From the IMG/VR virus record IMGVR_UViG_2558309052_000002: a stretch of DNA of 40,896 bases. One strand, 5' to 3'. The translations under genes and the position numbers were made by a program. Below, one piece after another: positions 1,540 through 5,042 of this stretch. Every line of letters begins with the position of its first letter. Within the stretch, counting starts at the first letter, position 1. Below the pieces are notes generated by a model. That model worked only from the letters and a program-made list of their open reading frames with translations, had not been told where the DNA came from and ran no database searches. This DNA is from a virus. Taxonomy: Duplodnaviria > Heunggongvirae > Uroviricota > Caudoviricetes.

Positions 1540-2112
1540 TTACATTTCAGGTTGCGTTATGACAGTCCCAACAGGGTGATAGCGGTAGATCGTTGACAGT
1601 CCAATATCATAGATAATTGCCAGCCGCTTTCTGTCATACCCTTTCTGGAGCAATCTTGCGATCTGCTCATGCTGCTCCTTCGTCAGTTTCGGGCGACGTC
1701 CTCCAACTCTTCCTTGTGCTCGCGCAGCAGCCAGTCCAGCCAGCGTGCGCTCAACTATCAGTTCACGCTCCATTTCTGCCAGTGCACCCATCATATGAAA
1801 AAAGAACCTTCCCATCGGAGTGCTGGTATCGATTGAATCCGTCAGACTGCGAAAATTGACACCTTTTGCGCGTAGCTCTTCTGTGAGAGCAATGAGGTGT
1901 TTCATTCTTCTACCCAACCGATCCAGCTTCCAGACCACCAATGTATCCCCTCTTTTAAGGCACTTTAAAGCGCGTTTCAGGCCTGGTCGTTCCGACTTGG
2001 TTCCGCTCATTTTGTCCTCAAAAATCTGTTCACATCCTGCGCACATTAATGCATTGCGTTGCAAATCTGTGTTTTGGTCATTTGTTGACACACGTATGTA
2101 GCCAATCAGCAT
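1540..2112 (-). CDS. Gin/Pin/Hin-family serine DNA invertase
   Basis: 190-aa product from ATG at 2112 (RBS AGGGAG upstream): MLIGYIRVSTNDQNTDLQRNAL...GDTLVVWKLDRLGR...RSLTDSIDTSTPMGRFFFHMMGALAEMEREL..., co-linear with Mu Gin. The longer ORF in the track (to 2241) is an upstream frame extension. Confidence 0.93.
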   Translation of the reverse strand: MLIGYIRVSTNDQNTDLQRNALMCAGCEQIFEDKMSGTKSERPGLKRALKCLKRGDTLVVWKLDRLGRRMKHLIALTEELRAKGVNFRSLTDSIDTSTPMGRFFFHMMGALAEMERELIVERTLAGLAAARAQGRVGGRRPKLTKEQHEQIARLLQKGYDRKRLAIIYDIGLSTIYRYHPVGTVITQPEM

Positions 2113-2180
2113 TAAAAATACTCCCTTTTGAGTGGTTAAAGTACTGAGATAATGTGGGGAGGATTTGAGAGATAAACGTT

Positions 2181-2696
2181 GGTTTAGGAGAAGGCTCGGC
2201 GCTACCCGTTGGTGTGCCTGTTCCGTGGCCCACCGCCACACCGCCAGCAGGCTGGTTAAAGTGCGACGGGCGCGCCTTTACAAAAGAACAATATCCTGTT
2301 CTGGCCAGAGTCTACCCGACCCTCCGTCTTCCCGATTTACGCGGTGAGTTTATCCGTGGATGGGACGACGGGCGCAAAGTTGATACAGGACGTAAGTTGC
2401 TGTCCGCACAAGGGGCAACGCTGTTAAGAACAGCAATGCTGGATTATTATAACCAGGACACTACGGGAACCTCGGGGATAGTCGGCATGGGATTCAACAA
2501 TGAAGATTCCATTACAGACCTTCGTGAGGGCAGCTTTAAAATGCCGGACGGGACAACATTCAGCGATCCTGTCGTGGCAATGTCAGACAATGGTATGCAG
2601 GCTACTATTCTGACCTCTATCAGAAGCGGGTATGCGAAGGGTATCACTGTCAGACCCCGTAGCATTGCACTTAATTACATTGTGAGGGCAGTTTAA
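2181..2696 (+). CDS. alternative tail-fibre C-terminal variable cassette (A), currently silent
   Basis: Frame open from 2169 with no credible own start. Begins with the shared LGEGSALPVGVPVPWPTATPPAGWLKCDGRAFTKEQ block, then a unique region, ending ...RPRSIALNYIVRAV. Confidence 0.7.
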   Translation, partial: GLGEGSALPVGVPVPWPTATPPAGWLKCDGRAFTKEQYPVLARVYPTLRLPDLRGEFIRGWDDGRKVDTGRKLLSAQGATLLRTAMLDYYNQDTTGTSGIVGMGFNNEDSITDLREGSFKMPDGTTFSDPVVAMSDNGMQATILTSIRSGYAKGITVRPRSIALNYIVRAV

Positions 2697-3310
2697 TGAG
2701 TAACACTGCAGTTCTGGATGAAAACGGTATCGCCACTGTAGCGGGCGATATCACTGTATATCACTATGACGAGGAAACCCGGGAATACACCTCATCCTCT
2801 GTGGAGTATCTCGCCCTTGGGGTGGGTACTCCGGCACATTCGTGCGCCGATGCACCGCCGGAAGCAATTTCGGGTTACGTGGTTTGCCGGACTGCCACGC
2901 TGAACGGGTGGGAGCATGTGCCTGATCACCGCGGCGAGACGGTATACAGCACGGAGAACGGTAACCCCGTTCTGATTACCCAACCGGGTGATTACCCGGC
3001 GGACACCACCACAAAACAGCCAGCCACGCCATGGGATACCTGGAACGGTGAGGCGTGGGTAACCGATACTGAACGGCAGCGAGCCGCAGAACTGGAGGTT
3101 GCCAGACAGCAACGCCAGCAACGGGTGAAACAGGCGATGGCGTCCGTCGATCTTATCAACCTCAAACTGCGTGCTGGTCGCAGTCTGAAACCAGAAGAAA
3201 CGGCAAAACTGAACGCCGTGCTGGATTATATCGACGAGCTGAACGCACTGGATATCAGCAAGGCACCTGAAATCAGCTGGCCGGAAGCGCCACTGGCGCT
3301 TGCCGGCTGA
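2696..3310 (+). CDS. tail fibre assembly protein (chaperone) paired with cassette A
   Basis: 204 aa. ATG overlaps the cassette A stop (TAATG). Resembles phage tail-fibre assembly proteins (Mu U / P2 G type). Confidence 0.75.
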   Translation: MSNTAVLDENGIATVAGDITVYHYDEETREYTSSSVEYLALGVGTPAHSCADAPPEAISGYVVCRTATLNGWEHVPDHRGETVYSTENGNPVLITQPGDYPADTTTKQPATPWDTWNGEAWVTDTERQRAAELEVARQQRQQRVKQAMASVDLINLKLRAGRSLKPEETAKLNAVLDYIDELNALDISKAPEISWPEAPLALAG

Positions 3311-3316
3311 ACGGTA

Positions 3317-3778
3317 TCACGCCGCCCTCACGATATAGTTAAATGCGATATTGCGGGGGCGAGCTGATACATAAGCCCACCAGTCATATCTTTGTGCACC
3401 TTTAGAGGATGCATCAAATATCCACTTTTTGCCATTTAAGACCCCCAGTTGATTAGAGGTTAAAGCGTCACCAAATCCGTATTGTGTAGAGCCGAGCGAA
3501 CTGATATCTCCGGTATCATTATCATCAAAACCGGATACGATAGTCCCTTCCTGAAATGAAAGTAGCGCACGCCCGGTATCAACCTTGCGACCACCGTCCC
3601 ATCCACGGATAAACTCACCGCGCAAATCGGGAAGACGGAGGGTCGGGTAGACTCTGACCAGAACAGGATATTGTTCTTTGGTGAACGTAGCTCCGTTGCA
3701 CTGTAACCAGCCTGCTGGCGGTGTGGCGGTGGGCCATGGAACCGGTACACCAACAGGCAATGCAGAGCCTTCCCCCAA
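3317..3778 (-). CDS. alternative tail-fibre C-terminal variable cassette (B), silent, no ATG
   Basis: 153-codon frame beginning TTG-GGG-GAA (LGEGSALPVG...) 10 nt after the expressed fibre stop; ends ...RPRNIAFNYIVRAA. Diverged homology block (about 85% to A/C). No downstream assembly gene. Confidence 0.6.
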   Translation of the reverse strand: MGEGSALPVGVPVPWPTATPPAGWLQCNGATFTKEQYPVLVRVYPTLRLPDLRGEFIRGWDGGRKVDTGRALLSFQEGTIVSGFDDNDTGDISSLGSTQYGFGDALTSNQLGVLNGKKWIFDASSKGAQRYDWWAYVSARPRNIAFNYIVRAA

Positions 3779-3788
3779 ACCAACGTTT

Positions 3789-5042
3789 CTATGCCGCCCT
3801 TACGATGTAATTAAACGCAATGTTACGGGGACGAATGGTCACATAATTAACCCCATCGCCTCGCGAAGGACCTGCAAATGAAAAACGGGAGAATCCAGGT
3901 TGGTTGTCAACGATTTGGTCATAGTTATTGATTGAATGACCAGACCCAATGTCAAAATTACCTGCGTAATGAGAAAAACTTGTACCATCCTGCCGTGAAA
4001 GCAGATCGCGCCCTGTATCCACTTTTCGCCCGTCGTCCCATCCACGGATAAACTCACCGCGTAAATCGGGAAGACGGAGGGTCGGGTAGACTCTGGCCAG
4101 AACAGGATATTGTTCTTTTGTAAAGGCGCGCCCGTCGCACTTTAACCAGCCTGCTGGCGGTGTGGCAGTGGGCCACGGAACAGGTACACCAACGGGCAGC
4201 GCCGAGCCTTCCCCCAAACCAAGGTAATTGAGGACATCTTTTATACTGCCCTTAGCGATAATAGCGCGACCAATAGCTGTAAGGGTTGCCAGCTCTGCGC
4301 GGTCTGCTCCGGTAAAATAAGGCAACCGATCTGCTGCAGTGGCAAGTCCTGCCAGAGCAGTGAGCGTGGCATCTGCCGGTTGTTTTCCGTTTGCCAGATC
4401 GTATGCAGCCTTGACCGCTTTCGGTGTGGCGGCCAGTATTTCAGACGTGCTGTTGATGGCACTGCTCAATTGTACGGTGCCTTTTGCCGTCAGCGAGGCA
4501 GCAGGCACTCCCGTTATCTGACTCCACGGGTGAGTGTGGCTGACGGGCGCCTTGCCGGCTGCAAGGTCGTATGCAGCCTTGACCGCCTTCGGCGTGGCAG
4601 CCTCAGTTTCTGATTGACTGTCCGTGGCGCTGCTCAGTTGTACGGTGCCTTTTGCCGTCAGTGAAGCCGCAGGCACTCCCGTTATCTGACTCCACGGGTG
4701 AGTGTGGCTGGCAGGCGCCTTGCCGGCTGCCAGGTCGTATGCAGCCTTGACCGCTTTTGGTGTGGCGGCCAGCGTTTCAGAGGTGCTGTTGGTGGCACTG
4801 CTCAGTTGGGTGAACCCCTTAGCTGTCAGTGTCGCGTCCGGGTGGTTACGGGAACGTACGTGTTCAGCCAGTGACTGTGCGGCTTCCTCCGTTTTCTTCT
4901 TCAGCCATTTCGTCCTGTTTGCCAGTTGCCGGGGGGCTCGATTTGATATCCCGTCTGCACCACCCAGAACCGGATCTGATGTCTCCAGTTGATAGATATT
5001 TTCTTCCCACTTTTCTGTTTCATTCAGGTTTCCCATAATCAA
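3789..5042 (-). CDS. tail fibre protein (constant N-terminal part fused to variable cassette C)
   Basis: 417 aa. ATGA overlap with the upstream gpI-like gene; internal 56-aa tail-fibre repeats; C-terminal 140 aa is homology block C plus a unique tip ending ...NIAFNYIVRAA. Confidence 0.9.
   Translation of the reverse strand: MIMGNLNETEKWEENIYQLETSDPVLGGADGISNRAPRQLANRTKWLKKKTEEAAQSLAEHVRSRNHPDATLTAKGFTQLSSATNSTSETLAATPKAVKAAYDLAAGKAPASHTHPWSQITGVPAASLTAKGTVQLSSATDSQSETEAATPKAVKAAYDLAAGKAPVSHTHPWSQITGVPAASLTAKGTVQLSSAINSTSEILAATPKAVKAAYDLANGKQPADATLTALAGLATAADRLPYFTGADRAELATLTAIGRAIIAKGSIKDVLNYLGLGEGSALPVGVPVPWPTATPPAGWLKCDGRAFTKEQYPVLARVYPTLRLPDLRGEFIRGWDDGRKVDTGRDLLSRQDGTSFSHYAGNFDIGSGHSINNYDQIVDNQPGFSRFSFAGPSRGDGVNYVTIRPRNIAFNYIVRAA
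4388..4829 (-). repeat. in-frame tandem repeats (168 bp, about 2.6 copies) inside the tail fibre gene
   Basis: Protein repeat LTAKG(F/T)(T/V)QLSSA.(N/D)S.SE..AATPKAVKAAYDLA.GKAP.SHTHPWSQITGVPAAS occurs twice in full and once in part. Shadow ORFs on + at 4393 and 4729 (336 nt apart) share ARSYAALTAFGVAAS. Confidence 0.85.

Follow-up and report, generated by a model that had tools for sequence, protein, structure and literature searches.

The window, a stretch of 40,896 nt, contains the terminal part of a Mu-like prophage of E. coli ST131, and its fibre locus is of the Gin/Min type with three alternative cassettes. The invertase gene is the last gene of the prophage, which adjoins aroA; it encodes a protein of 190 aa, carries the RefSeq label 'recombinase family protein' and adjoins the invertible segment. 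The segment and its flanks contain the following features.

1540..2112, minus strand: serine DNA invertase of the Gin/Pin/Cin/Min type (Pfam Resolvase 8e-51, HTH_7 1e-12)
2167..2192, plus strand: crossover site 1, GAGAGATAAACG TT GGTTTAGGAGAA, inverted relative to sites 2 and 3
2181..2696, plus strand: cassette A, with a collar N-terminal part, an 86-aa variable tip and the C-terminal motif (Pfam Collar 1e-15)
2652..2696, plus strand: 3′ motif of A, AGACCCCGTAGCATTGCACTTAATTACATTGTGAGGGCAGTTTAA, encoding RPRSIALNYIVRAV and a stop; the tfa-coupled form, GTG AGG GCA GTT TAATG
2684..2688, plus strand: Shine–Dalgarno sequence GAGGG, lying in the Val-Arg-Ala codons of A, with the ATG of tfa 7 nt downstream
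2696..3310, plus strand: tail fibre assembly gene tfa (Pfam Caudo_TAP, PF02413, 5.6e-27)
3317..3781, minus strand: cassette B, with a collar N-terminal part, a 69-aa tip and the motif (Pfam Collar 2.8e-15)
3317..3361, minus strand: 3′ motif of B, CGCCCCCGCAATATCGCATTTAACTATATCGTGAGGGCGGCGTGA, encoding RPRNIAFNYIVRAA and a stop; GTG AGG is kept, with no gene after it
3770..3795, minus strand: crossover site 2, minus-strand GGCATAGAAACG TT GGTTTGGGGGAA, from the pattern search
3789..4220, minus strand: cassette C, with a collar N-terminal part, a 58-aa tip and the motif (Pfam Collar at residues 285-332)
3789..3833, minus strand: 3′ motif of C, CGTCCCCGTAACATTGCGTTTAATTACATCGTAAGGGCGGCATAG, encoding RPRNIAFNYIVRAA and a stop; the site-adjacent form, AAT TAC ATC GTA AGG GCG GCA TAG AAACG
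4209..4234, minus strand: crossover site 3, TCCTCAATTACC TT GGTTTGGGGGAA, at the constant/variable junction of the fibre
4223..5036, minus strand: constant N-terminal portion of the fibre, containing three 168-nt Phage_fiber_2 repeats

All three cassettes match Pfam Collar (PF07484) at 56-58 bits against a cut-off of 24, and the constant part matches Phage_fiber_2 at 4.7e-56, its repeats making up direct repeat family D1. Cassette C is now joined to the constant part in a single open reading frame (3789-5042), cassette A is silent in this window, and cassette B is convergent with tfa, their stop codons lying 6 nt apart. The tfa gene at 2696..3310 is the only one in the invertible region. A pattern search of the window returned exactly three crossover sites of 26 bp each, with a chance expectation of 0. 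Inverted repeats I1 and I2, of 229-231 nt, have site 1 at their end, and cassette C has its last Ala codon and its TAG stop inside the outer half of site 2.

Natural isomers of the segment

Joined at the site core, each cassette continues the reading frame of the constant part, and four inversion states are possible with three cassettes, three sites and one tfa. Sc-A, Sc-B and Sc-C are all present in complete ST131 genomes, each as one 100%-identical piece: the Sc-A fusion in EC958, JJ1887 and other genomes, and the Sc-B fusion in AR_0055, H105 and others. For Sc-C, at least 80% of the 3.8-kb region is covered in 124 records, a count that may include the Sc-B state, and in record PV468777 the segment is fully inverted. 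Inversion does occur, as these natural isomers in ST131 genomes demonstrate, and the ST131 prophage is actively switching among three receptor-binding tips. A sigma-70 promoter scan of positions 2113-2170, on the invertase side where a promoter could drive tfa, gave no candidate; Mu-type late promoters fall outside the scope of such a scan.

The cassettes share a C-terminus more than a DNA sequence

Cassettes A, B and C all end in RPR(S/N)IA(L/F)NYIVRA(V/A)-stop, so that the near-identity of their last 13-14 residues, first noted in a sequence-only reading of this DNA, holds, as do the coordinates and sequences given there. A codon-degenerate NIAFNYIVR pattern (at most three mismatches) occurs in exactly these three places in the window, where 100 shuffles gave an expectation of 0. 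The residues that precede the motif are unrelated, as that reading had stated, but the variable parts, at 86, 69 and 58 residues, are somewhat shorter than its 80-100. Its description of the ends as the same sequence of about 40 nt was correct in that the ends are shared and overstated as to the DNA: compared in pairs, the ends agree at 69-76% of all positions and at 33-53% of third positions, and their longest stretches of identity measure 8-10 nt. Among codons for the same amino acid in the three ends, 50-67% differ, and synonymous sites vary freely throughout the first 11 codons, the outcome for which that reading had held a structural explanation to be sufficient. Conservation at the DNA level immediately before the stop is nonetheless real, as that reading had noted, GT(G/A)AGGGC(G/A)G being the only part shared at that level. 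By these comparisons, conservation of the motif acts mainly on the protein.

The end junction of cassette B is also found in diverged relatives (loci L109, L122 and L144-146), and the layout of the cassette C end, with its stop inside the site, recurs in 48-74 further site-adjacent cassette ends. The motif in a Gin/Min-type invertible fibre locus is already known and is ordinary phage biology; a full-text literature search with the motif string returned no match.

A collar domain probably split by the tip

A phmmer search against the PDB aligned the N-terminal part of the cassette to T4 gp37 (2XGF), and fibre residues 405-417 to the gp37 C-terminus VKNIAFNYIVRLA, making the motif homologous to gp37 residues 1014-1026. 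In gp37, collar domain D10 is composed of residues 811-881 and 1010-1026, and the tip, D11, is an insertion (PMC6957217). The last 17 residues of gp37 return from the receptor-binding tip and complete the collar, and the variable tip is therefore an insertion in the collar. Across the 54 cassettes compared, the N-terminal part and the last 13 residues are conserved and the middle is hypervariable, and the motif lies exactly two codons before the stop in 110/110 scanned ends among the matches listed.

An AlphaFold model of cassette C has a collar at pLDDT 81-91, a strand at residues 140-144 and a value of 86 for the last residues; the mean pLDDT is 62 and that of the low-confidence tip is below 50, values depressed because a monomer of a trimeric fold was modelled. 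Foldseek with this model, whose tip is of low confidence, returned 2XGF as top match (E 6e-6, probability 1.00), followed by T4 gp12. That the last strand contacts the collar comes from the description of the T4 structure rather than from the cassette model. The Mu tail fibre S/TfaMu structure (5YVQ) was considered as the closest structure and set aside, since only the N-terminal fibre repeats match it and the cassettes do not.

Each cassette most likely encodes a T4-gp37-type collar domain into which a variable receptor-binding tip is inserted. Most of the collar would come from the first ~70 residues; the chain would then pass through the tip, and on its return the last 13-14 residues (RPRNIAFNYIVRAA) would supply the strand that closes the collar. 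Such a strand is probably needed for folding, a requirement that would make the three cassettes end alike while leaving their codons free to differ. The earlier proposal of a conserved structural C-terminus is borne out by the identity of the motif with the gp37 C-terminus and by the free synonymous sites of the first 11 codons, and a structural role is supported as the main cause of amino-acid conservation. In practice, annotation can use the motif to place the true C-terminus of collar-type fibre tips, and for engineering it indicates the stretch in which tips can be swapped, namely the one that separates the conserved collar part from the last 13 codons.

A probable ribosome-binding site in the last codons of cassette A

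The ATG of tfa (2696-2698) overlaps the TAA stop of cassette A in the sequence TAATG (2694-2698), which makes coupled translation of tfa possible when A is fused to the fibre; tfa could alternatively start de novo when A is silent, downstream of another expressed cassette. The GTG AGG Val-Arg codons of A supply a GAGG, probably used by ribosomes, 7 nt before this ATG, and the predicted duplex of the Shine–Dalgarno sequence with the 16S 3′ end is −6.1 kcal/mol. Cassette B meets the convergent end of tfa after 6 nt and cassette C runs into crossover site 2, so neither is in a tfa-coupled arrangement, and with no tfa downstream a ribosome-binding site cannot explain their ends. Their crude duplex energies (−7.5 for B, −7.4 for C) are no weaker than that of A, which counts against the Shine–Dalgarno reading. 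For cassette B we infer a history in which GTGAGG may be the relic of a lost partner tfa. Cassette C ends in a different version, GTA AGG GCG GCA TAG, that leads directly into the next crossover site.

Codon usage and coupling were then surveyed in phage fibre ends from IMG/VR, among the matches listed. The N, I, Y and I codons of the 97 unique ends listed are mixed; Val is GTG in 87/97 and Arg is AGR in 95/97, against 19% AGR for the other Arg codons of the same open reading frames. In the 36 coupled RPR-type ends among these matches the final Arg is AGR in 36/36, while the two Arg codons lying nine codons upstream are AGR in 4/36 and 0/36, and Val is GTG in 99% of the coupled ends listed. 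Across 110 unrelated phage fibre ends, again among the matches listed, AGR ends are followed by an overlapping downstream start in 80 cases and not in 12, and CGN ends in 0 and 18, respectively (Fisher p = 4e-13, a value that overstates the support because the hits are not phylogenetically independent, the independent CGN lineages being estimated at only about 5-6). The coupled downstream frames match Caudo_TAP, and hence tfa, in 66/73 of the listed cases. A final CGN codon occurs, among the matches listed, only where there is no overlapping start; when a gene nonetheless lies downstream of such an end, a separate Shine–Dalgarno sequence is present further on. Coupled ends have a median predicted duplex energy of −5.9 kcal/mol; the corresponding medians are −2.8 at CGN ends and −3.1 in control windows taken from within fibre frames.

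AGR is also retained in 47/47 site-adjacent cassette ends that lack tfa, and in B, so the Shine–Dalgarno sequence is not the whole reason for it unless these ends are young or were inherited together with their flanking block. The proposal that the shared end serves as a ribosome-binding site for the assembly gene therefore stands for A and across the family, as a residual GTG AGR constraint only, and fails for B and C. Where tfa follows, the last two to three codons probably carry its ribosome-binding site and should be recoded only with care. Taken as a whole, a split collar with a closing strand, a tfa Shine–Dalgarno sequence in the last codons of A and a three-cassette Gin/Min-type locus form an account that we consider likely to be correct.

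Alternative explanations of the shared ends

The strongest competitor treats the 3′ end and the conserved 5′ collar part as anchors for tip swaps between phages over evolution, an idea that extends the earlier suggestion of a second homology anchor. That suggestion does not hold within the locus, where identical runs at the 3′ ends reach 8-10 nt against 33-140 nt in the 5′ part; because the invertase uses three separate 26-bp sites and the 3′ runs are this short, an anchor is unsupported here, and the three ends of the window are not exchanging with each other. Across the family it fares better, as mosaic breakpoints cluster at the motif. Unrelated tips (about 25% nucleotide identity) sit on tfa genes that are 90-100% identical in L081/L121, L022/L099 and L048, with the switch falling inside the motif. 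The change point lies at −16 to 0 relative to the N codon in 23/60 such pairs and at +24 to +40 in 10/15 pairs of the opposite pattern, although the method is forced to put the boundary where constrained similarity starts and many change points fall elsewhere in the tip. Each of 12 downstream-gene clusters is found with 2-9 unrelated tip clusters, a AATTACATCGTAAGRGCNGCAT-plus-crossover-site block is common to 15 unrelated tips, and De Paepe et al. (PMC3945230) treat stf genes as an established example of ancient exchange. Selection acting on random joints would, however, also leave breakpoints at a gene or domain boundary. On balance we regard this explanation as possible but lean against it.

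A different function would be chaperone docking, in which Tfa recognises the invariant C-terminal strand and the collar, allowing one tfa to serve several unrelated tips. Complete multi-cassette loci (41 loci) have exactly one tfa for 3-9 cassettes, the Tfa of the window is 72% and 57% identical to Tfa proteins coupled to unrelated tips, and near-identical tfa genes are joined to unrelated tips. In the published model, however, as PMC9608196 summarises it, Tfa binds the fibre through its variable N-terminal domain, tfa is antisense to the fibre operon in 2/4 inversion states, and T4 gp37 bears the same motif with the different chaperones gp38 and gp57A (PMC6957217). We therefore hold docking to be unlikely. 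It is similarly doubtful that a shared Tfa recognises strand and collar while the motif-plus-crossover-site block acts as a portable 3′ joint, through which arrays of 3-9 unrelated tips are built, swapped and served by one chaperone gene; if true, this would revise the view of the variable N-domain of Tfa as matched to its own tip. The rule of one tfa per array raises the modest question of how the other tips are chaperoned. Among the cassettes compared, no B-type or C-type tip has a tfa of its own; a candidate B-like tip with a coupled tfa in L147 was rejected, as the L147 cassette has a different tip.

It could also be that the amino acids alone matter and that the common GT(G/A)AGGGC is leftover ancestry with no DNA or RNA function. 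Most synonymous sites of the motif do vary freely, and AGG is kept in B and C with no gene downstream, but leftover ancestry sits poorly with the bias described above among the matches listed: final AGR codons in 95/97 ends against 19% elsewhere in the same frames, and in 36/36 against 0-4/36 for the upstream Arg pair, GTG in 99% of coupled ends, and CGN confined to ends with no overlapping start. This makes a purely structural cause quite improbable.

Recognition of the 3′ end by the invertase, as part of site-specific recombination, is the least credible proposal and very improbable: the stop and last Ala codon of C do lie within the outer half of site 2, and the preceding ~25 nt have a conserved version of their own, GTA AGR, in 45/47 site-adjacent ends, but just three sites exist, all at cassette starts, with only the stop codon of C overlapping one of them, the A and B ends adjoin none, a distance of 17-23 nt separates the Val-Arg codons from the site core and places them outside the 26-bp site, and the motif is equally present in fibres with no invertase, such as T4 gp37 and P2 H.

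Comparison with known systems

The closest structural parallel to the split collar is the T4 gp37 tip (2XGF), which likewise has a collar with an inserted tip, closed by a C-terminus ending ...NIAFNYIVR(L/A)A, and which Foldseek ranks first against the cassette C model. In T4, however, the tip forms a long iron-binding needle and has about 130 residues, against 58-86 in the tips described here, and T4 uses gp38 and gp57A instead of a Caudo_TAP Tfa and has no invertase. Cassette C, including the motif, also aligns along 99% of its length with the C-terminus of P2 gpH (54% identity) and with the side tail fibres of HK106 and mEp213. At loci whose downstream protein starts MAFRMSEQ, which we take to be lambda Tfa, the fibre stop and tfa start overlap in TAATG with GTGAGG just upstream. 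Unlike the locus described here, P2 gpH/gpG and the lambdoid Stf/Tfa pairs do not switch cassettes: their tip is fixed and single, as is their tfa.

The switching itself resembles that of the Mu G (Gin), P1 C (Cin), e14 P (Pin) and p15B Min segments, where a serine invertase is encoded beside the fibre gene, the constant/variable junction carries crossover sites, alternative C-terminal cassettes are joined in frame, and natural isomers occur. The tip of Mu S belongs to a different fold family, 5YVQ having matched in the repeat region only. In Mu and P1 there are two cassettes, and a separate tfa accompanies each of them (U and U′). With three cassettes, three sites, four states and one tfa, the ST131 locus differs from both and is closer to the multi-site Min type.

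An invertible fibre locus with a live switch

The window matches ST131 E. coli chromosomes at 100% identity, and PhiKM, a related phage record, is classed as Bcepmuvirus. The locus is arranged as follows.

1-1284: aroA, at the window start, followed by the Mu-like prophage end
1540-2112, minus strand: serine invertase
to 2696, plus strand: cassette A
2696-3310, plus strand: tail fibre assembly gene (tfa)
3317-3781, minus strand: cassette B
3789-4220, minus strand: cassette C, at present fused to the constant fibre part
to about 5036, minus strand: constant part of the fibre gene
beyond the constant fibre part: P2/Mu-type baseplate genes
2167-2192, 3770-3795 and 4209-4234: crossover sites of 26 bp, exactly three, one per cassette start

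Three crossover sites allow four states, and joining at the central TT puts each of A, B and C in frame with the constant part of the fibre. The constant part fused to cassette C occurs as a single 100%-identical piece in the complete ST131 genome of strain 4/4, as do the fusions to A in EC958 and JJ1887 and to B in AR_0055 and H105, and the segment is fully inverted in PV468777; the switch is therefore live. The constant part also carries three tandem 168-nt repeats (4384-4887, minus strand; 84% and 61% identity to the first), which correspond to three Phage_fiber_2 repeats. Public annotation of the cassette region is fragmentary: the intact 417-aa fibre ORF is split into a short CDS and 'incomplete' pseudogenes in RefSeq NZ_CP023826.1, and an ORF over the region in PQ738613.1 (PhiKM) is named 'Fe2+ ABC transporter permease protein 2'.

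The shared end is conserved largely as protein

The three cassettes end in RPRSIALNYIVRAV (A) and RPRNIAFNYIVRAA (B and C), each followed by a stop, at 2652-2696, 3317-3361 and 3789-3833, behind unrelated parts of 58-86 residues, which confirms the observation of the sequence-only reading. Within the window, a codon-degenerate pattern matches at these ends only, with none expected by chance. The DNA of the ends is only 69-76% identical, with longest identical runs of 8-10 nt and third-position identity of 33-53%; by contrast, the 5′ collar parts of the cassettes are 87-96% identical, with runs of 33-140 nt. Where the amino acid is the same, 50%-67% of codons differ; synonymous sites are thus largely free, and the cause lies largely at the protein level. 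The nucleotide-level conservation that had been proposed thus holds for the shared GT(G/A) AGG GC, and the interpretation as a whole is partly supported.

The motif as the probable closing strand of the collar domain

The Pfam Collar domain was matched in the N-part of all three cassettes. In a search of solved structures, the N-part aligned to the T4 gp37 tip (2XGF), and a separate alignment from the same search placed residues 405-417 against the gp37 C-terminus (VKNIAFNYIVRLA). The gp37 collar domain D10 comprises residues 811-881 and 1010-1026, with the tip D11 (882-1009) inserted into it (Islam et al., PMC6957217); the motif therefore corresponds to the strand that comes back from the tip to complete the collar. 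Consistent with this split, 54 aligned cassettes from Escherichia, Salmonella, Klebsiella, Citrobacter, Cronobacter, Enterobacter and Xenorhabdus are conserved in the N-part, hypervariable in the middle and invariant at the end (RP..N-YIV). An AlphaFold monomer of cassette C has a collar pLDDT of 81-91 and a value of 86 at the last residues, with a strand at 140-144 and a low-confidence tip, and among PDB entries the model matches 2XGF best and T4 gp12 next.

A probable ribosome-binding site in the last codons

A fully codon-degenerate search of IMG/VR for NIAFNYIVR recovered at least 97 unique ends. Among the matches listed, the stop lies exactly two codons past the Arg in 97/97, codon choice varies at the N, I, Y and I positions, GTG encodes Val in 87/97, and the final Arg is AGG or AGA (AGR) in 95/97, compared with 19% AGR at other Arg codons of the same ORFs. 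A complete scan with only the other Arg codons (CGN) at this position gave 22 loci. Ends were called coupled when an ORF of 90 aa or more began at an ATG or GTG that overlapped or touched the stop, mostly as TAATG. Over both scans, 80 AGR ends among the matches listed were coupled and 12 were not, against 0 and 18 of the CGN ends (Fisher p = 4e-13 among the matches listed, inflated by relatedness). In 36 coupled RPR-type ends the final Arg is always AGR, while AGR occurs in 4/36 and 0/36 at the two Arg positions that lie nine codons before it. Coupled ends are predicted to pair with the 3′ end of the 16S rRNA at a median of -5.9 kcal/mol, compared with -2.8 for CGN ends and -3.1 for control windows taken from within fibre ORFs. 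Where a CGN end has a downstream gene, that gene has its own Shine-Dalgarno (SD) sequence further on.

Behind cassette A, GAGGG (2684-2688) lies 7 nt upstream of the ATG of tfa, and this ATG overlaps the TAA stop of the cassette. The proposal that this end serves as the ribosome-binding site of the assembly gene is borne out in its arrangement and backed by the family-wide pattern, from which we infer that ribosomes use GAGGG here. Caudo_TAP, the Pfam family of the assembly protein (Tfa), accounts for 66/73 coupled ORFs. Five of the 73 genes overlapping a fibre stop (L038, L050, L067, L091 and L110) encode a 274-300 aa Macro-domain protein rather than Tfa, with ORFs that start ATGATTAAATTAATTC; the tips of L091 and L092 are 97% identical, and their downstream genes differ.

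Cassettes without tfa and the array rule

No tfa follows B or C in any of the four states. Cassette B is followed by 6 nt and then the convergent tfa end, a junction likewise kept in diverged relatives, and it retains GTG AGG, which may be left over from a partner tfa since lost. The Mu G segment is laid out Sv U / U′ S′v, and by analogy the history of B may resemble that of a G segment minus one U.

The end of C is a different DNA version (3789-3820; also loci L106, L109, L122 and L150-L197). Of 47 unique ends that adjoin a crossover site, all have AGR as the Arg codon and 45 have GTA as the Val codon. The block AAT TAC ATC GTA AGR GCN GCA TRR AAACG TT GGTTTGGGGGAAGG is 86-100% conserved across 15 unrelated tips, among which the RPRNIA codons vary; its coding part differs from the tfa-coupled version at four synonymous positions. 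The outer half of crossover site 2 (3770-3795, minus strand; GGCATAGAAACG TT GGTTTGGGGGAA) holds the TAG stop and last Ala codon of cassette C, so the coding end of one cassette overlaps the recombination site of the next. AGR in these tfa-less ends is the main observation outside the SD explanation, and its simplest account is putative co-inheritance with the adjacent conserved block. Either a function or inheritance together with the site could explain the site-adjacent version itself.

Among multi-cassette loci, the window represents the minimal form. Complete invertible loci of this kind (window 2696-3310; L109, L122, L144-L146 and L150-L197) hold 1-7 site-abutting cassettes, exactly one tfa-coupled cassette and exactly one convergent tfa-less cassette; 41 loci have one tfa per 3-9 cassettes. 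The tfa gene runs antisense to the fibre operon in two of the four states of the window, the present one included. Over its full length, the Tfa of the window shares 72% identity with that at L144:4943-5560 and 57% with that at L147:4504-5109, and the cassettes coupled to those two genes have unrelated tips. Tfa sequence in this family does not follow the tip.

A possible joint for tip exchange

The end had also been proposed as a second anchor for cassette exchange, an idea that has support as an evolutionary joint across the family, but none as a means of exchange between the three cassettes of this locus. In pairwise comparisons anchored on the motif, 60 pairs joined unrelated tips (about 25% identity) to downstream DNA that is 85-100% identical, and in 23 of them the change point falls at the motif, -16 to 0 relative to the N codon. 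The opposite pattern occurred in 15 pairs, 10 with a change point at +24 to +40. Twelve downstream-gene clusters are each joined to 2-9 unrelated tip clusters, and the mosaic examples include L048, with two fibre-tfa pairs on one contig. Selection acting on random joints, however, would likewise place the boundary at the edge of a domain or gene, and we therefore regard the role as a joint as secondary and uncertain.

Comparison with known systems

Three modest refinements were not found stated in the literature examined: fixation of GTG AGR linked to the SD, a distinct version of the end beside crossover sites, and the rule of one tfa per array. The motif itself is the known conserved C-terminus of the gp37/Stf/H fibre family, with P2 gpH and lambdoid side tail fibres aligning to the whole cassette, end included, and the locus is an invertible fibre region of the Gin/Min type.
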